Shown piece by piece: positions 1 to 7,806 of a DNA stretch of 7,806 nt. Where the stretch lies: the IMG/VR virus record IMGVR_UViG_3300029459_000073, positions 1 through 7,806 of that record. One strand, 5' to 3'. The notes under the pieces are model-generated. The model ran no database searches and was not told the DNA's origin. It saw only the letters and a program-made list of their open reading frames with translations. The position numbers were made by a program, and so were the translations under genes. Each line of letters opens with the position of its first letter. Position 1 is the first letter of the stretch. This DNA is from a virus. Its lineage: Duplodnaviria; Heunggongvirae; Uroviricota; Caudoviricetes.

Positions 1-208
1 CAGCAATATCCATGAAAAACTGCTTCGCCTGCTTTTTCGCCTCAGCTTCGTAAAACTCCAGCGTGGCACCTTCAGTACGGTCAAGACTAATCGCCACATT
101 TGGCAACAACAGTGGCGGATACCCACCAATTTCCAGTGCCACAGTAACAGCTATCTTATCCGGGTAATGATTTATCCCTTTTACAACCAGTTCATATTTT
201 TTATTCAT
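1..208 (-). CDS. DUF1327/YdfR-like lysis-cassette protein, N-terminal part only (gene runs off the left edge)
   Basis: Minus-strand ATG at 208-206 lies 4 nt after the holin stop (TAA 215-213). The frame stays open to position 1 (MNKKYELVVKGINHYPDKIAVTVALEIGGYPPLLLPNVAISLDRTEGATLEFYEAEAKKQAKQFFMDIA...). It is absent from the ORF track because the window edge truncates it. Its position directly after the holin matches ydfR (DUF1327) in the K-12 Qin prophage. The family name is recalled, not computed. Confidence 0.55.
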   Translation of the reverse strand, partial: MNKKYELVVKGINHYPDKIAVTVALEIGGYPPLLLPNVAISLDRTEGATLEFYEAEAKKQAKQFFMDIA

Positions 209-212
209 CGCT

Positions 213-428
213 TTACTCTCCCCGCGCCGCCTTACGACGGTCCTCTCTGATTTTGAAATACAGGTTAGTCAGATATGTCAGCAGCCCAAACAGCAGACTT
301 CCCAGTACGCCTATTGCCGCCCACTGAGACGGGGAAACCCTGTCCAGCAGCTGCAGGAACCAGTAGCCCGTCCCCACCGCTGACGTGGTGTATGACACAC
401 CTGTTGTGATTTTTTCCATCTGGTACAT
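213..428 (-). CDS. S: Class II holin (phage 21 S21 / Stx-phage S type pinholin) with dual start
   Basis: This 71-aa ORF matches the S21 holin pattern as I recall it ([23 protein letters not shown]...[22 protein letters not shown]). It has two hydrophobic segments and a basic C-tail. Met1 and Met4 (MYQMEK; ATGs at 428 and 419) form a dual start. GGAG at 439-436 sits 7 nt before the first ATG. Confidence 0.9.
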
Positions 429-503
429 ACCCCGTCTCCCGCAATCCGGAAGCTCACAACAACAAGTGGGGCATCAGCTCACACCGACAGCCCCTGCGCA
501 TGG

Positions 504-773
504 TTACATCATCATTTCGCCGTCAGGCTGAGGCTCACTGCCACCATCAGGCTGAGACACGACACCATCTGAAACAGCACTGTCACCCGCACCGTCTTCA
601 GGCCCGTGAGCAGCCGTTACCCCCAGCAGTTCATCAAGAATGGCATCCACTTCAGCATCAAGACGCGCCTCAAGATTCTGACGAAGTTGCTGTTTCAGTG
701 CGCTCCTGACTTCTTCAGAGCGCAGAACATCCTTCACTGCTTCAGCAGTGACCAGCGATTTTATTTCTGACAT
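504..773 (-). CDS. Small acidic phage protein of unknown function (89 aa, DUF826-like)
   Basis: I use the internal ATG at 773-771 of the 504..947 track ORF (MSEIKSLVTAEAVKDVLRSEEVR...). The upstream extension overlaps the 811..993 gene and has no RBS. A GAGAAA purine tract lies just upstream of the ATG. The N-half is helical and charged; the tail is a low-complexity acidic D/G/P/S stretch ending in MMM. The DUF826 label comes from memory of Stx-phage gene order. Confidence 0.55.
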   Translation of the reverse strand: MSEIKSLVTAEAVKDVLRSEEVRSALKQQLRQNLEARLDAEVDAILDELLGVTAAHGPEDGAGDSAVSDGVVSQPDGGSEPQPDGEMMM

Positions 774-810
774 GGTATTTTCTCGTTGAAAGGTGTTGTT
801 AAGAAAGTTG

Positions 811-993
811 CTACGGAATGAGAGGCTCTTCGGGTTTTGTTCCGGCTGACTGACTGGCACTGATTTTCTCAGCGGCCCTTTTGTCAATCTGTCTGCGCCA
901 GAAATCGCGCACTGCCCTGTACCCACCCGAAAGAAGATACAGCACACAGACCGCCGTACAGAAGTACAGCATCACCTGATGAATAAATGTCAT
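811..993 (-). CDS. Small single-pass membrane protein (60 aa), unknown function
   Basis: ATG at 993-991. The N-terminal hydrophobic helix (HQVMLYFCTAVCVLYLLSGG) is followed by a basic and then acidic tail. The gene has no good SD of its own, but its ATG overlaps the stop of an upstream micro-ORF (ATGA at 993-990). Confidence 0.55.
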   Translation of the reverse strand: MTFIHQVMLYFCTAVCVLYLLSGGYRAVRDFWRRQIDKRAAEKISASQSAGTKPEEPLIP

Positions 994-1034
994 AGTTTCT
1001 TACCGTTATGGTTGACAATGAGAACTGTTTTCAT
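990..1034 (-). CDS. 14-codon micro-ORF (MKTVLIVNHNGKKL), candidate translational-coupling ORF
   Basis: Its ATG (1034-1032) overlaps the TGA of the upstream 15-codon ORF (1033-1031). Its own TGA (992-990) overlaps the ATG of the 60-aa gene (993-991). It is too short for the ORF track; I read it by hand. Confidence 0.25.
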   Translation of the reverse strand: MKTVLIVNHNGKKL

Positions 1035-1078
1035 TTAAAAACCGATATACGAAAGCATCTTTTCTTTACATTCTCCAT
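1031..1078 (-). CDS. 15-codon micro-ORF (MENVKKRCFRISVFK) with consensus Shine-Dalgarno
   Basis: GGAGGT at 1091-1086 is followed by a 7-nt spacer and ATG at 1078-1076. The first two SD bases lie in the 3' arm of the hairpin that follows the nanS-p stop. Confidence 0.3.
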   Translation of the reverse strand: MENVKKRCFRISVFK

Positions 1079-1089
1079 TGGGATTACCT

Positions 1090-1126
1090 CCGCCAGCTTC
1101 CGTTCCTGCCGCTGGCGGCTTTTTTT
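1090..1126 (+). terminator. Intrinsic terminator oriented for the plus strand, abutting the nanS-p stop codon
   Basis: An 8-bp stem CCGCCAGC (1090-1097) / GCTGGCGG (1111-1118) encloses a 13-nt loop. It is followed by C and T7 (1120-1126). On the minus strand the same hairpin has an A-tract before it and no U-tract after it. Confidence 0.5.
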
Positions 1127-1127
1127 A

Positions 1128-3089
1128 TCATGCCGCGGCATCCGCGTTGTTCACTTCCACCTTCACACTGTCAATCAGCAGCGTATATGTCGCCGCCTTT
1201 GATATGCCTGTCAGTTGCAGTTTGTCCGCCGCCCCTGATGCCGGAGATTTCACCAGTGTGAACGGCGTCCCCCGTTTCTCATCCAGTACCGGCGTCACCT
1301 GAATGCTGTTGTTTCCGGCAAACTCAAAAGCCAGTGTGTGCCATCCGTTATCAAAGACCCCGAACGTATCCAGCTTCGCATTCGGCTTCTTGTGGTACAT
1401 CGCGTTCAGGTTCGTCGCATCCGTCTGCAGGAAGAAGGACATCAGCATGTCGTTGCCTTCCTCTGCCAGCGTCACTCCCTCCGGCAGGGACGACAACTGC
1501 CAGTAAATGCCCAGGGCAAACCGATTCGGCACCAGTGAACCCGGCAACTTAAACCGTACGCTCACACGTCCCCCCTTCTTCAGTAACTCCACTCCCTGTC
1601 CGGCTGCATCATGCTCCAGAAACCAGATGTGGTTTTCCGGTTTATTCAGTTGCAGGGCCTTACCTCCCGTAGCCCCCGCATCACTGACCACCGCTTCAGC
1701 AATGTTTTTGTTAACATTGTCTCCGCTCGCCGGTTTGTGATAATAGCGCCAGCCCTGTGATGCCAGGTCTTCGCCGGACGCCAGCAGACTCATCAGGGTT
1801 CGGTTACTGACCGGGGCTTCCGGCTCTCTCTCCGTACCTTCACCGGAAGGTCCGGTGGGCTTCACCGTATCAGGCTGTTTTCCGGTAATGAATTCAGCGG
1901 TTCTCCCGGCATGCACAAGAATCGCCGTTGCCAGACGGTCGGAAATAATCCCACGACGTGCCCATGATCCAAAATGCGTTTTACGGTCGGCCGTCGTCCA
2001 GGTTTTGGCGTCCGTTCGACCACCGGCTCCGTAATACCCAATATCCGCAACATCCGGATCTTCTGACGGCTCGTTGGTACCCACATTTCGCCCGTTTTCA
2101 TCCGTCATAAACGGCACAAAGAAGATTTTTTTTGCGGATTTCGTCTTGTATGCACCATACACCGCATCGTATTGCGAAGAATAAGTCTGCTTCCAGTAGT
2201 AGGTCGTGTCGCCACAAATCCAGGGAACCGATGACGGAGAGCCCCCGAGACACTGACCTCCGAATTCCGACAGGTCAGAACGATATTTTTCCACCATGGA
2301 ATCAAACAGCCCCGGCTGAGTGGCGTATGCACCCTGTTTCAAATCAAACTCGCCCTGCATCCAGACCACTGCAAGCAGAATATTTTTAGGGTTAGCCTTC
2401 AGTGCGGCCTGAGTACGGGTAAGCAGGTCCTTGTACAGTGGCTTATCTACACCCCAGCGTGCCGAGGTCTCGCTTGCGCCGGTGGATTCGCTGAAGGTAC
2501 CTTCATCGCCCGCCAAAAATGCAGAACCACCACGGCAGCACGGAACCAGAAGAATACCGGCATTCGCCGGAATAAACGGCAACAATTTCTTCGCGATATG
2601 TAATCCCTGCCCCACGCATCCATACTGAGCTGCGCTGGCTTTCGGGTGTGAAAACTTACTCAAATCCTGAACATCATGCAGGCAGTGGTCCGCAGGAATA
2701 ATGTCATTGTAGTTACAGGACGCACCACCCGGCGTGACAGTGCTGCGACGCGCCAGCTGTTTAATACGCGGGTCCGGACGGTCATATGTCTCCGGCAGCG
2801 GAAGCCCTTCACCATACGCCATACCGTTTGACTGCCCGGCCAGGGCAACAACAAAGTAATACTCCGGGTTGCTGGTGGTGCTGATAACTGCGCCTTCTCC
2901 ATCCGACGGCTTCACCACCACAGGTGTGGTGACATCACCTTCCGCCGCAATGGCCTGCATCAGGGTATAAGGCGTGATGGCCACCGGACTGCCAAATGGC
3001 TGCCACCCCTCCTTCAGTTTTTGTGTCAGTCGCTCCGCAAGGTCTGACGGCGACGCCGCCCTGACCACGTCATAGTGTTTAAATGCCAT
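1128..3089 (-). CDS. nanS-p: Prophage sialate O-acetylesterase NanS-p (DUF1737 N-domain + SASA/SGNH esterase + C-terminal lectin-like domain)
   Basis: A 653-aa ORF with GGGAGGA 5 nt upstream of the ATG at 3089. The N-terminus (MAFKHYDVVRAASPSDLAERLTQKLKEGWQPFG) is the DUF1737-type start of the large ORF found downstream of stx in Stx phages. The esterase block GQSN (aa 85-88, nt 2826-2837) is followed by GxxYGEG. The last ~200 aa are beta-rich and look lectin/ConA-like. The position between Q and the holin matches nanS-p loci. Confidence 0.85.
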   Translation of the reverse strand: MAFKHYDVVRAASPSDLAERLTQKLKEGWQPFGSPVAITPYTLMQAIAAEGDVTTPVVVKPSDGEGAVISTTSNPEYYFVVALAGQSNGMAYGEGLPLPETYDRPDPRIKQLARRSTVTPGGASCNYNDIIPADHCLHDVQDLSKFSHPKASAAQYGCVGQGLHIAKKLLPFIPANAGILLVPCCRGGSAFLAGDEGTFSESTGASETSARWGVDKPLYKDLLTRTQAALKANPKNILLAVVWMQGEFDLKQGAYATQPGLFDSMVEKYRSDLSEFGGQCLGGSPSSVPWICGDTTYYWKQTYSSQYDAVYGAYKTKSAKKIFFVPFMTDENGRNVGTNEPSEDPDVADIGYYGAGGRTDAKTWTTADRKTHFGSWARRGIISDRLATAILVHAGRTAEFITGKQPDTVKPTGPSGEGTEREPEAPVSNRTLMSLLASGEDLASQGWRYYHKPASGDNVNKNIAEAVVSDAGATGGKALQLNKPENHIWFLEHDAAGQGVELLKKGGRVSVRFKLPGSLVPNRFALGIYWQLSSLPEGVTLAEEGNDMLMSFFLQTDATNLNAMYHKKPNAKLDTFGVFDNGWHTLAFEFAGNNSIQVTPVLDEKRGTPFTLVKSPASGAADKLQLTGISKAATYTLLIDSVKVEVNNADAAA

Positions 3090-3242
3090 GAATCCTCCCG
3101 GCCTGGATAATATTGTGAGTAAAATGAGGAGCGGGCTGAAGTCCGGAAGTTACAGGACAATGGCAGAAGATAGACAACAGCCCGCAATACGAAAAAGGCC
3201 GCGCTATTGCGCAGAGTGATTACTGTCGGATATTATTCGCCA

Positions 3243-3311
3243 GCTGAAATATTACTTCACGTTTTGTTGTTTATTCCTTGCCGCCCGCGTCTCCCAGCGC
3301 GGGATTTTTTT
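3243..3311 (+). ncRNA. Candidate ~70-nt plus-strand small RNA (promoter-like TTGCGC-N18-TATTAT at 3207-3236 to the terminator at 3284-3311)
   Basis: A plus-strand intrinsic terminator has no plus-strand CDS to serve. A sigma70-like promoter sits ~75 nt upstream. The body is U-rich (CACGUUUUGUUGUUUAUUCCUUG) before a GC stem. This is a prediction only. Confidence 0.2.
3284..3311 (+). terminator. Intrinsic terminator, plus-strand orientation
   Basis: An all-GC 6-bp stem CCCGCG (3284-3289) / CGCGGG (3298-3303) encloses an 8-nt loop. It is followed by A and T7 (3305-3311). Confidence 0.6.
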
Positions 3312-3312
3312 G

Positions 3313-3342
3313 TCCATAAGAAAGCCCCTCCGGAGAGGGGCT
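3313..3342 (-). terminator. Intrinsic terminator, minus-strand orientation
   Basis: An 8-bp stem AGCCCCTC (3323-3330) / GAGGGGCT (3335-3342) encloses a tetraloop. On the minus strand it is followed by TTCTTATGG. It is convergent with, and 11 bp from, the plus-strand terminator. Confidence 0.5.
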
Positions 3343-3657
3343 GGAGAGTGGCGCTATGTGCCATTGCATGGTGCCGGGTGCCTCCCGGTGAGTTCAGTAT
3401 CAGCACCTGAACCCGCACAGAAAGGATAAGGGTCGGTGACAAAACACCAGTTGCTGATTGCCCCTCCGCACAGGGGGATTCACCATGCCAGTTTCTTTTA
3501 ACAAACTCCCCGCAAACCAGACAACAGTCAACCGCCTGAATTGTGAGGTATTTAAAAATTTCAACGGGTAACTGATACCCTGCTAATCGCCTGATGCTTT
3601 CTTTTTCAGCAACGGGAAAGCAACAACCACCACACCCACCAGCCGCCCATTTACCAC

Positions 3658-3685
3658 AAATAAAAAAGCCTTCACTGCGGAAGGC
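3658..3685 (-). terminator. Intrinsic terminator ending the 65-aa gene
   Basis: The minus strand reads GCCTTC-CGCAGT-GAAGGC followed by TTTTTTATTT (3667-3658). The TGA stop (3674-3672) spans the loop/stem junction. Confidence 0.65.
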
Positions 3686-3869
3686 GTCTGTAACAACCGA
3701 ACTGATAGTCTGCCAGACCCGCCATAACCAGCTGGGTCAGTATTAACTGGCAGCGTTCGCGTGAAAGGTAAGTATTCTGCGCTATCTCCCCGACTGTCGC
3801 CGGTTCGGTGACGCTTAATTCATTAAACACCACTCTGGCGGTTTCTGTCATATCCTGCTGTTTCAGCAT
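3672..3869 (-). CDS. Small (65 aa) winged-helix/HTH-like protein, unknown function
   Basis: I use the internal ATG at 3869 of the 3672..3992 track ORF, preceded by AAAAGGGAAAAAGAC. The track's start is a GTG abutting the U-tract of the upstream terminator and has no RBS. The sequence MLKQQDMTETARVVFNELSVTEPATVGEIAQNTYLSRERCQLILTQLVMAGLADY has the T-x-x-EIA...S...v...L..L...G pattern of wHTH recognition units. An alternative ATG lies at 3851. Confidence 0.5.
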   Translation of the reverse strand: MLKQQDMTETARVVFNELSVTEPATVGEIAQNTYLSRERCQLILTQLVMAGLADYQFGCYRRLPQ

Positions 3870-3992
3870 GTCTTTTTCCCTTTTCCGGTTAACGTGACAC
3901 ACCAATAACTCTTGTCGAAAAAGCCAGCAACCTGAAAGAACGGTATTAATAACCACCAGCGAATTTATTGCGCTACTGTATATCGCGGACAC

Positions 3993-4016
3993 AAAAAAAC
4001 CACCTTCCGGTGGCTT
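3993..4016 (-). terminator. tR'-like intrinsic terminator downstream of the Q-like gene
   Basis: The minus strand reads AAGCCACC-GGAA-GGTGGTTT with a run of 7 T (3999-3993). A second, weaker hairpin (GCGAAA...TTTCGC, 4044-4023) lies just before it. It sits 78-101 nt after the Q-like stop, as expected for a lambdoid late-promoter-proximal terminator. Confidence 0.7.
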
Positions 4017-4066
4017 CCTTTTGCGAAAAAAACTTGCGTTTCGCCTCGCGATACAGCTTTGCGAAG

Positions 4067-4104
4067 CTTATACGGATTGAAGCAGTTTATTGATCAGTTT
4101 GCAA
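4067..4104 (-). promoter_or_regulatory. Candidate late promoter (PR'-like) with a second -10-like hexamer in the initial transcribed region
   Basis: The minus strand reads TTGCAA (4104-4099), N17, TTCAAT (4081-4076), followed 3 nt later by TATAAG (4072-4067). Lambdoid PR' promoters carry a promoter-proximal -10-like element that causes the sigma70-dependent pause used by Q. This assignment rests on position and motif only. Confidence 0.35.
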
Positions 4105-4657
4105 CATTTTTCTCTGTAACAAAAGCCATGCGCATGGGGGCATATAACATAAATTCAGATACCCCCAACCATTGATCAATTCGGCGTCTGCACGTAACCA
4201 ACGACCAATCAGGATGATCTGCATTTAACCTTTCGGCCATTTTCAGTTTGCTCATTCCCCGTCCTTCGTACCTTTGCCGGAGAACATTGATTAGCCCGGG
4301 ATATTCCCCAAGCACCTTACTGATAACGCGATCAATAATCAACGCCTCTGTGTCTGTACAATGTGACAACCAGCTCTTCTGCTTTCCTCTTGTCATATCC
4401 CGAAAAAATGCCTCAAGTTCCGGTTTTTCCAGCCCGGATTTCTTCATTCTGCGCAAAACCTCATTAACTGCTGTTTTCGTCAGCTTTTTCGAAACCAGTA
4501 ACCGGTTAAACATATTTCCGGATTTACCCCCACCGATATACGACCACCGCCCCCACATCCGTAATTTCCCCTGGATCCAGACTGCTTCCAGCGTGTTCAG
4601 GCGTAAATGTTCGCCGCTTTTGCCTGTAATTTCCGGATATATCATATTTACGCTCAC
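4094..4657 (-). CDS. Late-gene antiterminator Q-like protein (DUF1133-type)
   Basis: The position is canonical for Q: directly after rusA and directly before a promoter-plus-terminator pair. The N-terminal L..WG.W motif (GKLRMWGRWSYIGGG) resembles the ERWGAWA motif of QuuD/82-type Q proteins. The track start is a GTG at 4657. The ATG at 4645, with GTGAG 7 nt upstream, is at least as likely (MIYPEITGK...). The family name is recalled, not computed. Confidence 0.6.
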   Translation of the reverse strand: MSVNMIYPEITGKSGEHLRLNTLEAVWIQGKLRMWGRWSYIGGGKSGNMFNRLLVSKKLTKTAVNEVLRRMKKSGLEKPELEAFFRDMTRGKQKSWLSHCTDTEALIIDRVISKVLGEYPGLINVLRQRYEGRGMSKLKMAERLNADHPDWSLVTCRRRIDQWLGVSEFMLYAPMRMAFVTEKNVAN

Positions 4658-4663
4658 TCACTC

Positions 4664-5023
4664 TCAATTTTGTAAATCTTCACACCCAGCCNNNNNNNNN
4701 NNNNNACCAGATACTGGCTGACCACGTACAATATTGATTTCATCAAACTGCTCATCGTCCATTAACAGTCCTGCATGCGTCAGCGCATCCAGCGGCGCTT
4801 TCAGGATATTGTCCAGGTCGCGACGGCGCTTATCCGGTGGCTCTGCCATAATCCTGATTACCAGCCTTCCGGACAGGCTTAATTTCAGCCGCTGCTGGCG
4901 AACAATAAGCGCCACAGCCCGGCGATAACGCTTTCCCTCCTCCGAGATAAAATATGTGCTGCCACGGCGTCGCCAGTAAGTGTTCACCGTCGGCGGGTAA
5001 GGTAAAACCAAATCTATGAGCAT
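4664..5023 (-). CDS. rusA: Holliday-junction resolvase RusA (3' end uncertain because of the N run)
   Basis: LPYPPTVNTYWRRRG...PPDKRRRDLDNILKAPLDALTHAGLLMDDEQ matches the RusA core (PDRRRRDLDN..K...DALT.AG...DD.Q). ATG at 5023 is preceded by AAGAGGTGA. The GTG at 5026 is the track start. The C-terminus after the N run is better explained by another frame ending at 4654 (see findings). Confidence 0.85.
   Translation of the reverse strand: MLIDLVLPYPPTVNTYWRRRGSTYFISEEGKRYRRAVALIVRQQRLKLSLSGRLVIRIMAEPPDKRRRDLDNILKAPLDALTHAGLLMDDEQFDEINIVRGQPVSGXXXXXAGCEDLQN
4692..4705. other. Run of 14 N (masked or unresolved bases) inside rusA
   Basis: Read directly from the sequence. Confidence 1.
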
Positions 5024-5035
5024 CACTCACCTCTT

Positions 5036-6082
5036 TTACCCAAGCACGCCAGTTGCAAAGGCGTGATCAAGAAAACGAAAAATTAAATCAACCTGAGAAC
5101 CATGCTTTTCTTCGAACGCCAGAGGATCCGCATGAAGCTCGTTGTGATGCTCCCGACACAGCGGTAGCGTGAAAATATCGTGAGATTTTGTCCCCATTCC
5201 GCCCTGACCATGACCAATCAGGTGATGGGGATCGTCGGCTGGCTTACCACAACACGCACACGGCTGTGTCTTCACCCAGCGTGTGTATTTCTCGTTAACC
5301 CAGCGGCGACGTTTAGGTCGTTTCATGAAAGATTCCGGAGACTCAGGATCAACGGCAATGCTGACCACCGTCTTTTCCTGTGGTGGGTTCTGTTGCTGGT
5401 GGGCGTGAGNNNNNNNNNNNTTTTTTGTGCGCTGTTTCAGTATGCTGGTGGCGGTCTGCTCTCCCGGTACGATGTCGCTTTCACGGTACATTGAGCGGAT
5501 TTTTTCCGCACGCAACCCCAGCGAACGACGTAATACCGCTTCCGGTAGCGCGTCCGCCACCTGATTGTGGACCGCCCACCAGGATAATTCAGCCAGCGAT
5601 AATTCCCGCTCCTGTGTGCCATTCATTGCGTGACGAATGACGTCAATCATCCATGCTGACAAGTTTTGGTGAGCAAGTTGCTCAAGTGATTCGGAGGTCT
5701 GGTCACGCAACTGGTTGTCGCAGTGCCAGCACAACACCATTGCGCCGGTACCATAACGGTGAATGACGGTTTCGCTGTGATGATAATCGCCGTGTGGCCA
5801 CTGGCAGGATTTAATATGGCGCAACAGCCAGTCAGACAATGCACCAGCACCACCAGCAGCACGAATCACCCGTGCGTTACTGAAAAACGGCAGCAATGTT
5901 TTGTCTTCCACCAGCGGCTGGCGAACGGCAGGAACGACCCCGGACGGCAGATTACGCATGCTTTTCGGTTCCGGCTCCACCAGTACCCGGGTATTGTGGA
6001 ATACCGGCATGGATTCACGGCCCGGCTTAACGATCACCAGCCCGAGTTCCGGTACCAGAACAGGTCGAAGTAATACTCGCAC
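5036..6082 (-). CDS. DUF968 / YdfU-like protein with two Cys/His (HNH-like) motifs
   Basis: A 348-aa ORF with a GTG start at 6082, 1 nt after the upstream TAA. The C-terminal CACCGKPADDPHHLIGHGQGGMGTKSHDIFTLPLCREHHNELH is an HNH-like metal-binding motif. A degenerate copy lies at aa 93-125. Size and position (before Q, after a hok locus) match ydfU of the K-12 Qin prophage. The frame is continuous across the 11-N run. Confidence 0.8.
   Translation of the reverse strand: MRVLLRPVLVPELGLVIVKPGRESMPVFHNTRVLVEPEPKSMRNLPSGVVPAVRQPLVEDKTLLPFFSNARVIRAAGGAGALSDWLLRHIKSCQWPHGDYHHSETVIHRYGTGAMVLCWHCDNQLRDQTSESLEQLAHQNLSAWMIDVIRHAMNGTQERELSLAELSWWAVHNQVADALPEAVLRRSLGLRAEKIRSMYRESDIVPGEQTATSILKQRTKXXXXXHAHQQQNPPQEKTVVSIAVDPESPESFMKRPKRRRWVNEKYTRWVKTQPCACCGKPADDPHHLIGHGQGGMGTKSHDIFTLPLCREHHNELHADPLAFEEKHGSQVDLIFRFLDHAFATGVLG
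5410..5420. other. Run of 11 N (masked or unresolved bases) inside the DUF968 gene
   Basis: Read directly from the sequence. It falls in the linker between the two Cys/His motifs and preserves the reading frame. Confidence 1.
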
Positions 6083-6083
6083 G

Positions 6084-6362
6084 TTACCTCCAGATGCGTT
6101 GCTGGAATGTGCGGGACGGACGCGGTGAGCGTTCGGAGTAAGGAAGCCTGACGGAGATTATCCAGTGACGATAATCGAGGCTGAGGGCTTTCTTAATCTC
6201 GTATCCGTGTCTGCGGTAGCACTGAATTAGCCACTCGGCCTGTTCTTCAGTGCATGGGGGATGCTGGAACCAGTCAGATTTGAAAGTGCGGGAACGCCGC
6301 CCGTGCCTGCTGGCAAAGACGGCAGAATCATCAGAATTGTGTAATTTGGTATCGTGCGCCAT
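6084..6362 (-). CDS. Hypothetical 92-aa protein (occupies the position of rem in Qin-type prophages)
   Basis: I use the internal ATG at 6362 of the 6084..6491 track ORF (MAHDTKLHNSDDSAVF...). The upstream 43 codons span the hok terminator hairpin, so they are unlikely to be coding. The TAA (6086-6084) lies 1 nt before the DUF968 GTG, suggesting coupling. I recognise no domain. Confidence 0.5.
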   Translation of the reverse strand: MAHDTKLHNSDDSAVFASRHGRRSRTFKSDWFQHPPCTEEQAEWLIQCYRRHGYEIKKALSLDYRHWIISVRLPYSERSPRPSRTFQQRIWR

Positions 6363-6434
6363 CGGTTGTCTCTGCTGGCGCAGCAGGTGCCAGTTGTTCA
6401 GGCTGGCGTGCGAATTGTAAACCAGAATGCCAGG

Positions 6435-6461
6435 AAAAAACAAAACCCGCCGAAGCGGGTT
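6435..6461 (-). terminator. Intrinsic terminator of the hok transcript
   Basis: The minus strand reads AACCCGC-TTCG-GCGGGTT followed by TTGTTTTTT (6443-6435). Confidence 0.8.
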
Positions 6462-6467
6462 ACGTGC

Positions 6468-6480
6468 GGGTGCGTTGAGG
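6468..6480 (-). promoter_or_regulatory. fbi-like 3' fold-back element of hok mRNA
   Basis: Minus-strand CCTCAACGCACCC is complementary, with one bulged C, to the predicted mRNA 5' end GGGTGCTTGAGG (6855-6844). Confidence 0.55.
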
Positions 6481-6529
6481 ATGCCTGACACATCAGAGGT
6501 GGCGAGGGATTTCTCCCTCGCCGGGTCTC

Positions 6530-6685
6530 TTACTCCTCAGGTTCGTAAACTGTGAAGACAGCGACCTCCGTCTGGCCGGTTCGGATTCGTACCTCGCAGA
6601 GGTCTTTCCTCGTTACCAGTGCCGTCACTATGACGGTTAAACAGATGACGATCAGGGCGATTAACATCGCCTTTTGCTGCTTCAT
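6530..6685 (-). CDS. hokD: Hok/Gef-family type I membrane toxin (51 aa)
   Basis: MKQQKAMLIALIVICLTVIVTALVTRKDLCEVRIRTGQTEVAVFTVYEPEE is, as I recall it, almost identical to HokD/RelF of the Qin prophage and clearly belongs to the Hok family. ATG at 6685 is preceded by AAGGAG (6700-6695). Confidence 0.9.
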   Translation of the reverse strand: MKQQKAMLIALIVICLTVIVTALVTRKDLCEVRIRTGQTEVAVFTVYEPEE

Positions 6686-6742
6686 AGCCTGCTTCTCCTT
6701 GCCTTTCGGCACGTAAGAGGCTAACCTACATGTGTCTAGCAT
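6530..6742 (-). CDS. mok: Mok-like overlapping reading frame (in-frame N-terminal extension of hok, 70 aa)
   Basis: ATG at 6742 with GAGG (6754-6751) 8 nt upstream. It shares the stop with hok, as for mokC/hokC in K-12. Confidence 0.55.
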   Translation of the reverse strand: MLDTCRLASYVPKGKEKQAMKQQKAMLIALIVICLTVIVTALVTRKDLCEVRIRTGQTEVAVFTVYEPEE

Positions 6743-6806
6743 GAAATTGGCCTCAGATTAATGTTAAGCGTCTTGCAGGACGCGTAATGTTAACTGGGGC
6801 TTTTCT
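6734..6806 (+). ncRNA. sok: Sok-like antisense RNA (approximate ends)
   Basis: The plus strand has TTGCCT (6699-6704), N17, TAACCT (6722-6727). The predicted 5' tail (about 6734-6757) is antisense to the mok ATG and SD. A 15-bp hairpin with one mismatch follows (6758-6793), then CTGGGGCTTTTCTCT. The ends are not determined. Confidence 0.4.
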
Positions 6807-6843
6807 CTATCTGCCTTTTGGTATTCATGCCTGAGACAGATAG

Positions 6844-6855
6844 CCTCAAGCACCC
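6844..6855 (-). promoter_or_regulatory. tac-like 5' element of hok mRNA
   Basis: The minus strand reads GGGTGCTTGAGG, starting 7 nt after the -10 hexamer. It resembles the GGCGCUUGAGGCU 5' end of R1 hok mRNA as I recall it, and it pairs with 6480-6468. Confidence 0.55.
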
Positions 6856-6861
6856 GCAGCA

Positions 6862-6889
6862 ATTCTACTTAACTATCCTTTCCCCGCAA
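6862..6889 (-). promoter_or_regulatory. hok/mok mRNA promoter
   Basis: The minus strand reads TTGCGG (6889-6884), N16, TAGAAT (6867-6862). The predicted transcript from about 6855 to 6436 is about 420 nt, the usual size class for hok-family mRNAs. Confidence 0.55.
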
Positions 6890-6896
6890 ATCGTTT

Positions 6897-6980
6897 TTAT
6901 CCCCAGCGACAAATCGAATACACCACCAGCGCCACCGCCATTGCGATCCCTACCGTTGTGAATGCCTCAGGCCAGGTCAT
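6897..6980 (-). CDS. 27-aa hydrophobic micropeptide ([27 protein letters not shown])
   Basis: Read by hand, as it is too short for the track. Its ATG (6980-6978) overlaps the TGA (6979-6977) of the 114-aa gene. It has one predicted TM helix and a TAA at 6899-6897. Confidence 0.35.
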
Positions 6981-7321
6981 CGTAAAACATCCTCTGCGCT
7001 TATCAGTCCGTTTCGCTTCAGGTAGTCCATCGCCTTACCCGGCAATTTACAGTCCGGCTTCGTTTTCCTCAGTTGCCAGGTTAACTGCTTTACCAGCATG
7101 GTTAACTCGTCGACCAGACGCTGATGTCCCACTGGTTTGTATTCATGCAATTTACCGGCTGGCTCTGCTGCCAGCGATGCCAGTGCGATTTCCAGAACAG
7201 CAATATCTATCTTATATGTGCGGATGATGTCATGGTCGATTGTGCCCGGTATGCACAGTCTCTGTGCTTCAATAGTCTCCTCTGCGTGAGCTATTAACTG
7301 CTCTCTGGTAAAAGTGGTCAT
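6977..7321 (-). CDS. Hypothetical 114-aa protein, predicted helical
   Basis: Its ATG (7321-7319) overlaps the TGA (7320-7318) of the upstream nuclease gene. There is no competing ORF, since the 6958..7227 plus-strand ORF is antisense and low-complexity. I recognise no domain with confidence. Confidence 0.65.
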
Positions 7322-7806
7322 GCCGCGCTTCCTTCTTGCTTATTAACGATTACACCGTCATATATTTCATTAAGGTGTCCCCTCAACTCCATGCGCCTTA
7401 ATGCAGACAACATGTAATCGCATTCAACCTGCTTATTTCCAGTAAATGGCTTATCGTCAGGATCACCCCAACAGCAATTACCCTTGGGCCACCCATGTAC
7501 TTTCCGTACTCTTCCGTTAACAACGTGAAGTAATCCCCAGCCAGGTGGTAAATCCTCAATTGAAATAATTCCCGGCTCACTAATAAAGAATCTCCAGTCG
7601 CCCATGCCAAGAGAGGGATTTTTACGGAAACGCTTTTTTCTATCTGCCAACAAGTCAGCACGAGAACACTTCGCCTCTATCAGGCATGATGCTGAATTTC
7701 TGAATCCCATAGCATCTGGCTGTTCTCCGGTACTGGTTACAGCAACAAAGCGGTCATGAAAGCAAACCTTGAACCCGTTGCGCTTAAGGAACCTGTACGC
7801 AATCTG
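7318..7806 (-). CDS. MmcB-like PD-(D/E)xK nuclease-fold protein (N-terminus beyond the right edge)
   Basis: The frame of the 7318..7710 track ORF stays open upstream to 7806 ([60 protein letters not shown]...). The PD ... IEAK spacing fits a D...ExK nuclease core. The [11 protein letters not shown] string after it is the signature I associate with the MmcB-like family (PF06319). This is recalled, not computed. Confidence 0.65.

Follow-up and report, generated by a model that had tools for sequence, protein, structure and literature searches.

Three overlap-coupled genes beside a hok/sok locus in a probable lambdoid prophage assort independently

Does a string of three overlapping genes beside a hok toxin locus form a single functional module, or does it consist of separate genes that recombination has placed next to one another? 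The question is raised by one end of a 7,806-nt stretch of viral DNA (here called the window; positions 1 to 7,806 of IMG/VR record IMGVR_UViG_3300029459_000073), in which a nuclease-like gene, a gene for a 114-aa protein and a 27-codon micro-ORF follow one another directly. An earlier sequence-only reading had taken the three for a compact anti-phage or superinfection-exclusion cassette placed beside a type I toxin. Our analysis shows that the genes are shuffled independently; they probably represent ordinary lambdoid mosaicism, not a dedicated defence module.

All three ORFs lie on the minus strand. The nuclease-like ORF (7318-7806) is represented by its 3' 489 nt, equivalent to 162 codons and a stop, and stays open to the window edge, as previously noticed; its relatives are 171 aa long and place the start (MALTHRELC) 27 nt, or nine codons, past that edge. 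The 114-aa ORF (6977-7321) starts within the ATGA overlap at 7318-7321, preceded by a Shine-Dalgarno-like AAGGAAG, and the micro-ORF (6897-6980, stop TAA at 6897-6899) starts within a second ATGA overlap at 6977-6980, with a Shine-Dalgarno-like GAGGA at about -10. Both overlaps, which had been read as coupling the genes, were confirmed within the window, and each of the three ORFs is kept open in hundreds of genomes, beyond what chance would allow. Consensus scans revealed neither promoter-like nor terminator-like sites between the three genes, a picture compatible with early transcription by read-through, although such scans are crude and their silence does not strictly exclude a promoter.

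The hok/sok type I toxin-antitoxin locus occupies positions 6530-6855 of the same strand, with mok at 6530-6742 and hok within mok. It is identified by a Pfam HOK_GEF match (E 6e-22) and by the Rfam hok/sok leader RF01794 at 6680-6855 (120.7 bits), and hokD is annotated in relatives. The three-gene string ends approximately 42 nt ahead of the leader (6855). Between the two lies a putative promoter of the mok/hok mRNA (6862-6889, minus strand), consisting of TTGCGG (6884-6889), a 16-nt spacer and TAGAAT (6862-6867), whose placement fits the Rfam leader. This placement is our own reading of the two hexamers, because a strict sigma-70 consensus scan of 6400-7806 flagged no promoter, the putative hok promoter included. 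The former statement that the string ends 7 bp from the hok promoter is accordingly accurate in its distance, the putative promoter beginning 7 nt past the micro-ORF stop, and a reasonable inference as to the promoter itself. The hok/sok locus is a neighbour, and its promoter is context that lies outside the gene string. The impression that the region is more AT-rich than nanS-p (GC 0.551) or the DUF968 gene (0.533) applies mainly to the nuclease gene (0.458; the 114-aa gene has 0.487) and does not extend to the micro-ORF (0.560).

If the three genes worked as one cassette, they would be expected to co-vary across prophages, an expectation already stated in the earlier reading. They do not. 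As simple counts without phylogenetic correction, 928 of 5426 E. coli genomes contain the nuclease, 666 the 114-aa gene and 1153 (about a fifth) the micro-ORF, whose carriers include the Stx phage 933W, whereas just 47 have the junction of nuclease and 114-aa gene and 29 the complete arrangement. The junction is thus present in only 47 of the 928 genomes with the nuclease. The same independence is seen in IMG/VR, where 67 of 80 nuclease loci occur without the 114-aa gene and 67 of 80 loci of the 114-aa gene occur without the nuclease. All 80 nuclease loci nevertheless retain the ATGA; the genes that follow are unrelated and all begin with M-[TI]-T-[IFL]-T, and at least five unrelated ATGA-coupled genes were found downstream of the nuclease. 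The micro-ORF is similarly promiscuous, with at least five unrelated genes upstream and about eight unrelated sequences downstream, among them hok here and in 933W, and DUF4222-xis-int in BP-4795.

An anti-phage or superinfection-exclusion cassette in which a nuclease effector, a partner and a membrane peptide work beside hok could draw on the tight ATGA coupling of all three genes and on the recurrence of the arrangement at 98-99% identity in the 29 complete genomes. The combination of a nuclease with a membrane peptide also occurs in some defence systems. Set against this are the independent assortment, the exchange of unrelated genes at one and the same ATGA junction, and a micro-ORF that is not tied to hok. 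A search of all three products against PADLOC-DB v2 returned 0 families at E <= 1, and the relatives of the nuclease lie among recombination genes. Lysogen-expressed exclusion genes usually carry their own promoters, whereas no promoter of its own was found for the trio, which sits inside an early lytic operon. The trio fails as a cassette because its genes occur independently of one another, and we consider joint action in defence or exclusion extremely improbable.

The region is probably better described as the distal end of an 'ea/nin-type' accessory string of a lambdoid E. coli prophage, composed of three separate genes joined by mosaic recombination. A relative (L004) illustrates the order in which such a string may be embedded: O/P-like replication genes, DUF1627, DUF977, DUF4406, an Ea22-like gene, the nuclease, the 114-aa gene, hokD, DUF968, RusA and Q. 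The string would sit between the replication genes and hok-DUF968-rusA-Q. We postulate that its members were brought together at conserved gene-boundary junctions and are translated successively, by ATGA stop/start coupling, from a delayed-early transcript.

What, then, do the individual genes encode? The AF2 model of the nuclease (pLDDT 85) forms a single 171-aa domain, without a sensor or ligand-binding domain, and contains the α-β-β-β-α-β core fold of PD-(D/E)xK enzymes. Its sequence carries the motifs GEQPD...CLIEAK followed by an 11-residue stretch with the S-R-A-D-F-x-A-D motif seen after the catalytic lysine in the MmcB family. The predicted active-site codons fall within 7669-7716 on the minus strand (D40 7714-7716, E53 7675-7677, K55 7669-7671). 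The predicted catalytic residues occupy the second and third strands of the core. Across 43 diverse family members D40 is invariant, and conservation of E37, E53 and K55 is 90% or higher; in a closer alignment of 30 sequences D40, E53 and K55 are all invariant, and this region aligns with the D/E-x-K and SRADFQAD of 3dnx. The model matches phage 'MmcB-like DNA repair' proteins in BFVD (E 1e-7 to 3e-4), and the family profile matches 3dnx (E 2.9e-4), which makes the MmcB family the closest structural relative. Among the 43 relatives, sub-threshold Pfam matches were obtained to Hjc (20 of 43) and to MmcB-like (9 of 43, best E 2.9e-4). The protein itself falls below every Pfam and NCBIfam threshold, with no Pfam match even at E <= 10, and in PHROG the three products matched 'unknown function' families and, weakly, a 'DNA repair protein' entry. 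The assignment to the family is therefore drawn from the predicted structure and from weak profile matches; on this footing the MmcB-like PD-(D/E)xK fold proposed earlier is supported.

The product may therefore be described as a putative small Mg2+-dependent DNA endonuclease, whose closest fold would be MmcB/DUF1052, followed by Hjc-type resolvases. Temperate and lytic-type phages alike carry the family among their early genes. Its order is NinB-x-nuclease-NinG in Lonsdalea and Lar-like-nuclease-RusA in Providencia, and in lytic-type phages it occurs in a region of PIF1 helicase and ligase. By analogy with neighbours such as NinB, NinG (Rap) and RusA elsewhere, the enzyme's most likely substrates are damaged DNA or the intermediates of phage replication or recombination. 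A recombination or repair role had been raised beforehand as a caution, and the gene neighbourhoods in other genera fit it. The nuclease could conversely be an offensive or counter-defence enzyme that, for example, degrades host or competitor DNA or cleaves a defence signal: the PD-(D/E)xK fold is common to restriction enzymes and Can2-type effectors, the gene is early in phages of both lifestyles, and P1/P7-like phage-plasmids carry it as well (248 plasmid places; P7 upf89.0). We regard such a function as unlikely, given that the nearest fold is that of the repair nuclease family MmcB and then Hjc, that the gene repeatedly adjoins NinB, NinG and RusA, and that its single domain has no sensing part.

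The N-terminal hairpin of the 114-aa protein is variable. It is followed by an IALASL(A/E)AEP hinge and then by a C-terminal module, conserved in segments of 12 and 19 residues, which DUF551-containing proteins share; the PHROG matches of the 114-aa protein divide between the N- and C-terminal halves. The AF2 model is helical (pLDDT 70, pTM 0.42) and showed no significant fold match in Foldseek against the PDB. Generic helical-bundle matches from the same search (E > 0.4) were discarded, as they are meaningless at a pTM of 0.42. Searches of Pfam, NCBIfam and PADLOC yielded no significant match either, the sole Pfam match being AphA_like at E 0.025, far under the cutoff. With its helical and modular build, the product would belong to the Ea22/DUF551-associated mosaic class; comparison with exo-xis proteins suggests that it probably serves as an auxiliary factor early in infection or induction. 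Mosaicism of the Ea22 family and an early auxiliary role of exo-xis genes have been described (PMC10834534, PMC8614690).

Co-inheritance was observed for one pair within the string, namely the 114-aa gene and the micro-ORF, and not for the trio. The junction of the C-terminal module with the micro-ORF occurs in 582 genomes, while most of the 114-aa gene is present in 562. Of the 80 IMG/VR loci, nearly all keep the micro-ORF region co-linear with this gene. Because the two are almost always together, they may work together, and a natural in-frame fusion of both (P0148) points in the same direction. The 114-aa protein and the 27-aa peptide could thus constitute a two-gene unit, for instance a membrane anchor together with a soluble helical protein that it regulates or that is recruited to it, with the nuclease as an unrelated neighbour. 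About half of the micro-ORF copies, however, lie behind unrelated genes (DUF551 proteins, L0139 of 933W, the Av-05 gene and others), the linkage could reflect a single common recombination module, and the fusion may be a decay product. We consider the two-gene unit rather unlikely.

The micro-ORF raises the prior question of whether it is a gene at all. Its 27-residue product was predicted earlier to form a single hydrophobic helix, in agreement with a mean Kyte-Doolittle hydropathy of 2.1 over residues 6-24. In loci chosen via the upstream gene it is intact in 76 of 81, the remaining five carrying a frameshift or nonsense change. The length is exactly 27 aa in 933W, BP-4795, PhiR12_5 and Av-05, behind unrelated genes, and is kept in alleles with many nucleotide changes and only about 59-67% amino-acid identity. 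The pN/pS ratio is 0.30 in frame and 1.1 and 1.4 in the two other frames, with conservation inflated by an allele set picked partly by peptide pattern; in an unbiased set the variable sites are distributed 7/6/15 over the three codon positions. One variant contains an in-frame two-codon insertion, and both TAA and TGA stops are found at the same codon. Of 42 distinct contexts, 41 keep a GGAGG-like motif upstream together with an overlap of 4 nt or 1 nt, and homology breaks off, at mosaic breakpoints, directly past the stop codon. By its frame, length, sequence, purifying selection and ribosome-binding site, the 27-codon ORF looks like a real coding gene, so that the check on conservation of the frame, proposed before the present analysis, came out in its favour.

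The 84 nt could instead be conserved as a linker for recombination, as an RNA or as a regulatory element, the open frame being incidental. Such an element would accommodate the five disrupted loci and the narrow taxonomic range: a contig scan found the micro-ORF in Escherichia and Shigella only, apart from two short contigs (about 400 bp) in unrelated genera, which we regard as contamination. The evolutionary depth is shallow, since the micro-ORF is confined to Escherichia and Shigella phages. It is also unannotated in RefSeq and in the 933W, BP-4795, PhiR12_5 and Av-05 records, while the exact peptide appears sporadically in GenBank as 'hypothetical/bacteriophage/prophage protein'. The peptide strings gave no occurrence in a full-text literature search, and the peptide is absent from the Ribo-seq supplements of EHEC strain Sakai; this last absence is uninformative, because the study covered uninduced cultures and intergenic ORFs. 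Against a non-coding element stand the fixed codon number in divergent alleles, the third-position bias and low pN/pS specific to this frame, the in-frame insertion and the interchangeable stops, the conserved Shine-Dalgarno motif, and the end of homology at the stop codon. In addition, the predicted RNA fold (z = +1.0) is no better than that of shuffled sequence, and no Rfam RNA was found over 6897-6980. A non-coding origin of this frame is in our view very unlikely. Two further candidates were rejected: an apparent fusion of the micro-ORF to DUF551 was treated as a clustering artefact, as the clusters hold DUF551 proteins without the peptide, and a programmed frameshift joining the upstream protein to the peptide finds no slippery heptamer, the upstream genes also being unrelated.

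The micro-protein appears to be a genuine 27-residue single-pass inner-membrane protein under purifying selection. Together with its own Shine-Dalgarno motif it would move as a unit, usually closing gene strings, whatever precedes or comes next. We propose, as an evenly balanced possibility, that it represents a previously unnamed phage micro-protein family. The product would be synthesised soon after induction as a single-pass membrane peptide, its mosaic module (Shine-Dalgarno motif plus 84 nt) would close accessory strings of lambdoid and Stx phages, and its target would be a specific membrane protein of host or phage, through which it would tune for example lysis-lysogeny, exclusion or envelope physiology. 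It is the sole mildly new item of the region.

The main value of these observations is negative: in lambdoid prophages, the tight ATGA coupling of genes and their nearness to hok do not constitute evidence of a functional module. The overlaps are conserved recombination junctions, into which any gene can plug and still be translated. Two by-products merit attention. The MmcB-like nucleases of phages form a large family without a name (about 3300 clusters at 50% identity), which could receive a family model and a testable activity; and the 84-nt micro-gene, found in over 1100 of the 5426 complete E. coli genomes, is an easy target for tagging or knock-out after prophage induction.

Among known systems, the predicted nuclease most closely resembles the MmcB-like/DUF1052 family (Pfam PF06319; 3dnx SPO1766; Caulobacter MmcB). 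It shares the D...E-x-K triad followed by S-R-x-D-[FL]-x-A-D and a comparable size of about 150-170 aa, and its structural neighbours include phage proteins annotated as MmcB-like. It differs in missing the Pfam model, which its relatives match below threshold only, in being about 21% identical to 3dnx, and in having its own conserved GMGDWRF and KPF-x-NKQ-x-E-C-D-Y...SALRR motifs. MmcB is a PD-(D/E)XK endonuclease, and its function in the repair of cross-link (mitomycin C) damage under SOS regulation is established for the Caulobacter protein only; the gene there is chromosomal and SOS-regulated, whereas the present gene lies in a phage early operon (PMC9578287). The family shares a genomic setting with NinG (Rap) and RusA, the structure-specific nucleases of the lambdoid nin region, as it adjoins or overlaps one or the other in other genera. 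A role like that of the archaeal Hjc-type Holliday-junction resolvases is a candidate; the matches to Hjc are sub-threshold, the folds of RusA and NinG differ from that of the present nuclease, and this prophage already carries RusA.

The 114-aa protein is comparable to the Ea22/Ead-like and DUF551 proteins of the ea region, which also have an M-T-T-x-T start, an IALASLEAEP hinge and the same C-terminal module. Ea22 variants similarly combine a modular N-terminus, a helical region and a swappable C-terminal domain (PMC10834534). In contrast to these proteins, the 114-aa protein is much shorter and matches neither Pfam Ead_Ea22 nor DUF551. Its gene is situated in the rightward string from replication to Q, and not between exo and xis as in the exo-xis region.

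The micro-protein recalls small single-pass membrane proteins and type I toxins (Hok, TisB, DinQ, Ibs, ShoB), with which it shares one hydrophobic helix with aromatic and charged flanks; its size is near that of DinQ, ShoB and KdpF, and it adjoins a hok locus. Its best matches in Pfam and NCBIfam, KdpF (E 0.024) and DUF883_C (E 0.04), are not significant family similarities. Unlike the type I toxins, the micro-ORF showed neither a promoter of its own on either strand nor an antisense RNA in our scans, and its translation is coupled to that of the gene before it. The conserved polar ends of the peptide, M-x-W-P-E-A and Y-S-I-C-R-W-G, suggest that it may engage a specific partner rather than cause generic membrane damage.

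The nuclease gene occupies the minus strand from 7318 to 7806 as a reading frame of 162 codons that is open to the window's last base. Records of relatives (phage P7, where it is named upf89.0, Shigella phage Ss-VASD and E. coli NMBU-W12E19) give a full-length protein of 171 residues, starting with MALTHRELC 27 nt past the window edge. Its TGA shares bases with the ATG of a 114-codon ORF (ATGA, 7318-7321, minus strand); both the open frame and this overlap, read earlier from the sequence, are present. The protein has no match in Pfam, NCBIfam or PADLOC, its PHROGs (9263 and 631) are both of 'unknown function', and a 'DNA repair protein' PHROG is matched weakly (E 0.003). It has 328 close relatives throughout Enterobacterales and belongs to a family of 3283 clusters library-wide at 50% identity. 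D40 never varies among 43 diverse family members, where E37, E53 and K55 each reach a conservation of at least 90%; in a closer alignment of 30 sequences, D27, E37, D40, E53 and K55 are invariant without exception. Family-specific motifs are GMGDWRF and KPF-x-NKQ-x-E-C-D-Y...SALRR. The AlphaFold2 model, built from 30 homologues, reaches a mean pLDDT of 85 and a pTM of 0.79, and among viral models, Foldseek picks out several entries named 'MmcB-like DNA repair protein' (E 1e-7 to 3e-4). A profile of diverse relatives matches 3dnx, the structure of the MmcB-like protein SPO1766 (E 2.9e-4), pairing the D/E-x-K residues and an S-R-x-D-F-x-A-D motif. Sub-threshold Pfam matches among the relatives are to Hjc (20 of 43) and MmcB-like (9 of 43). 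The designation as an MmcB-like PD-(D/E)xK nuclease thus holds for fold and active site, but not for membership of Pfam PF06319; it adds a new, unnamed protein to a known superfamily.

Two existing annotations differ from this picture. In NZ_CP042892.1 (8974-9152 of the inspected locus, corresponding to about 7655-7806 of the window and beyond), RefSeq/PGAP calls the gene a 179-bp 'frameshifted' pseudogene; the 171-codon ORF there is unbroken and 99.6% identical to the window, and the call looks like an annotation artefact. The P7 homologue (3974-4489 of the NC_050152 locus) is named 'minor tail protein' in RefSeq, which conflicts with the predicted PD-(D/E)xK fold. The family is frequent on P1/P7-like phage-plasmids.

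Outside E. coli, prophages of Lonsdalea have the gene between NinB and NinG, with an overlap into the latter; in a prophage of Providencia, it is flanked by RusA and a Lar-like gene, and in lytic-type phages it belongs to the early region, where a PIF1-type helicase and a DNA ligase are close by. A second lytic-type phage locus also carries a member of the family. These neighbours point away from defence and towards a role in replication, recombination or repair of DNA. That the enzyme is instead offensive or serves counter-defence is improbable. Caulobacter MmcB itself is an SOS-regulated PD-(D/E)XK endonuclease that protects against mitomycin C (PMC9578287).

The sequence-only reading had joined the nuclease, the 114-aa gene and a 27-codon micro-ORF into an overlap-coupled three-gene cassette beside hok with a possible defence or exclusion function. 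Independent occurrence, which that reading had itself set as a refuting outcome, speaks against this. Among 5426 complete E. coli genomes, at megablast sensitivity, the nuclease is found in 928 (and at 248 further places on plasmids) and the 114-aa gene in 666, while their junction occurs in 47 and the whole 1.4-kb arrangement with hok in 29. Likewise, the nuclease is missing from 67 of 80 IMG/VR loci with the 114-aa gene, as it is from vB_EcoS-689R5, and the 114-aa gene from 67 of 80 with the nuclease. In these latter 80 loci, the gene next to the nuclease overlaps it by ATGA every time and begins M-[TI]-T-[IFL]-T, yet no fewer than five unrelated kinds, 44 to 468 aa long, occupy this place. 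In phage records, the gene after the nuclease is EaA in Stx-type phages and Upf89.5 in P7. From these shuffled partners at the same junction, together with the genome counts, it follows that the ATGA overlaps are conserved mosaic junctions, which keep translational coupling for any inserted gene and give no sign of functional partnership. A three-gene defence cassette is accordingly most improbable, and the region represents ordinary lambdoid mosaicism, with a compact defence-like cassette unsupported. The start shared by otherwise unrelated proteins at the nuclease junction (window 7318-7335) has a counterpart in a similarly conserved '...GGTGAATCAATGA' junction upstream of the micro-ORF; both look like recombination linker sequences at gene boundaries.

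Consistent linkage is confined to the 114-aa gene and the micro-ORF: the micro-ORF occurs in 1153 of the 5426 genomes, and the C-terminal module of the 114-aa gene together with it in 582, so that about half of its copies pair with other genes. That the two products form a functional pair is possible, if doubtful, and would be compatible with our main account of mosaic assortment.

The micro-ORF (6897-6980, minus strand, 27 codons) overlaps the stop of the 114-aa gene by ATGA (6977-6980) and encodes a 19-residue hydrophobic core with a mean Kyte-Doolittle hydropathy of 2.1; coupling and hydrophobic segment are both seen as first described. When its conservation was checked in 81 loci fetched via the upstream 114-aa gene, with the peptide itself not a selection criterion, the frame was intact in 76. 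Variants comprise one allele with an in-frame two-codon insertion and the use of TAA or TGA at the same stop codon. Compared with the commonest allele, the window copy carries six changes; each is at a third codon position, and five are synonymous. Over 19 alleles, a set partly picked by peptide pattern, pN/pS is 0.30 in frame, and the two alternative frames give 1.1 and 1.4; variable sites in an unbiased set still fall 7/6/15 across codon positions. The peptide did not appear in supplements from an EHEC Ribo-seq study, which covered uninduced cultures and intergenic ORFs. That the micro-ORF is non-coding appears unlikely; the RNA fold is no better than that of shuffled sequence (z = +1.0), and Rfam gave no family match.

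By tblastn, the peptide is found in 94 phage records. Its range is limited to Escherichia/Shigella phages, and its consensus is M-x-W-P-E-A-F-x-x-V-G-[9 hydrophobic]-Y-S-I-C-R-W-G. In 933W, BP-4795, PhiR12_5 and Av-05, the ORF is exactly 27 codons long (63-81% identity), unannotated in all four records, and overlaps mutually unrelated upstream genes (L0139, a DUF551 protein, an 'Ea22' and a hypothetical protein). Among 42 distinct contexts, the upstream genes end in no fewer than five unrelated C-termini, and some eight unrelated sequences follow downstream; a start overlap of 4 nt or 1 nt and a GGAGG-like motif 6-11 nt upstream are kept in 41 of the 42, and homology breaks directly after the stop codon. 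The exact peptide appears sporadically in GenBank as a 'hypothetical', 'bacteriophage' or 'prophage' protein; it has neither family nor name, and a literature search found nothing. The micro-ORF is therefore a conserved small gene, mostly unannotated, which very probably encodes a single-pass membrane micro-protein; the gene travels as its own module, typically last in an accessory-gene string. We regard it as the most interesting of the three pieces, and it merits tagging.

In 933W, the reference Stx2 phage, the unannotated homologue (2501-2584 of the inspected locus) lies between L0139 and sokW/hokW, in the same position relative to hok as in the window. A tblastn search also finds this peptide, about 81% identical, in VT2-Sakai and many other Stx phages; among these phages, the placement relative to hok was inspected in 933W. 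Two short contigs, of 369 bp and 431 bp, from assemblies of Acinetobacter idrijaensis and Xanthomonas pisi carry the micro-ORF, and 'Actinobacillus phage vB_Apl-pPE4' (PP818812.1, H2) has a 94% identical E. coli-type 114-aa/hok region; all of these are probably contamination or mis-assignment.

Adjacency to hok is unspecific, since the micro-ORF is followed by DUF4222-xis-int in BP-4795 and PhiR12_5. In the window, the Hok/Gef ORF spans 6530-6742 (minus strand), and the Rfam hok/sok leader model matches at 6680-6855 (120.7 bits). A candidate hok promoter, TTGCGG-16 nt-TAGAAT (6889-6862), begins 7 nt past the micro-ORF stop, as had been proposed; because a stricter consensus scan did not pick it, we infer its placement only. 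The name of the matched model, 'sok' (RF01794), is misleading for strand assignment, as the match sits on the hok strand, spanning the hok mRNA leader, whereas Sok RNA is transcribed from the antisense strand (the 933W record has sokW opposite hok). Downstream, at the intrinsic terminator after hok (stem-loop 6444-6461), there is an overlapping sub-threshold Rfam isrK match (6440-6521, minus strand; 27.8 bits, gathering score 50, E 0.0012). In GC content, the nuclease gene (0.458), the 114-aa gene (0.487) and the micro-ORF (0.560) compare with 0.533 for DUF968 and 0.551 for nanS-p, which narrows the suggested AT-richness mainly to the nuclease.

The best full-length match is an E. coli chromosome (99% identical), where the region lies within a lambdoid prophage. 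Its gene order runs from the repressor region through O-like and P-like replication genes, DUF1627, DUF977, DUF4406 and an Ea22-like gene to two hypothetical genes, the nuclease, the 114-aa gene, hokD and one hypothetical gene, followed by DUF968, RusA, Q, tRNAs, the SASA esterase (nanS-p) and lysis genes. From this order, the three ORFs are the tail of an accessory ('ea/nin-type') string between the replication genes and Q. A consensus scan found no promoter-like sites between them and no convincing terminator; the lone terminator-like match (7314-7326, at the nuclease/114-aa junction) is on the opposite strand and does not exceed the scan's shuffled-sequence expectation. Expression within the delayed-early transcript would fit this absence. 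We consider the following mechanism likely as a whole. Upon prophage induction, the early rightward transcript would read through the accessory string, and ribosomes ending at each TGA would re-initiate at the overlapping ATG. The products would be a Mg2+-dependent MmcB-like/Hjc-like endonuclease acting on branched or damaged phage DNA beside RusA, a helical auxiliary protein, and a 27-residue inner-membrane peptide binding a specific membrane target, with a probable N-out/C-in topology suggested by R25.

The 114-aa protein (6977-7321, minus strand) gave no significant match in a family search, and its PHROG matches divide into those of the N-terminal and those of the C-terminal half. The homologue alignment is a modular mosaic, consisting of interchangeable N-terminal modules that all begin M-T-T-x-T, a conserved hinge IALASL(E/A)AEP, a short middle piece and, at the C-terminus, a conserved module some 45 residues long, which also terminates larger proteins, some with DUF551. 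In the all-helical AlphaFold2 model (pLDDT 70, pTM 0.42), the N-terminal hairpin is predicted with confidence, the linker is disordered and confidence is lower for the C-terminal part; the model has no meaningful structural neighbours. In a natural variant of 114 aa (P0148, 11 member sequences, related to window 6897-7321), the C-terminal module carries a deletion or frameshift that joins the N-terminal part in frame to the micro-ORF peptide; two short PGAP 'partial DUF551' fragments (P0399, P0420) likewise run into the micro-ORF frame. The protein is a typical mosaic ea-region protein, resembling in its modularity the Ea22 variants of lambda and Stx phages, which show the same kind of mosaicism (PMC10834534, PMC8614690). 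By analogy only, it may serve as an ea-region auxiliary protein; in lambda and Stx phages, the exo-xis genes act early and modulate the lysis-lysogeny decision without being essential (PMC10834534, PMC8614690).
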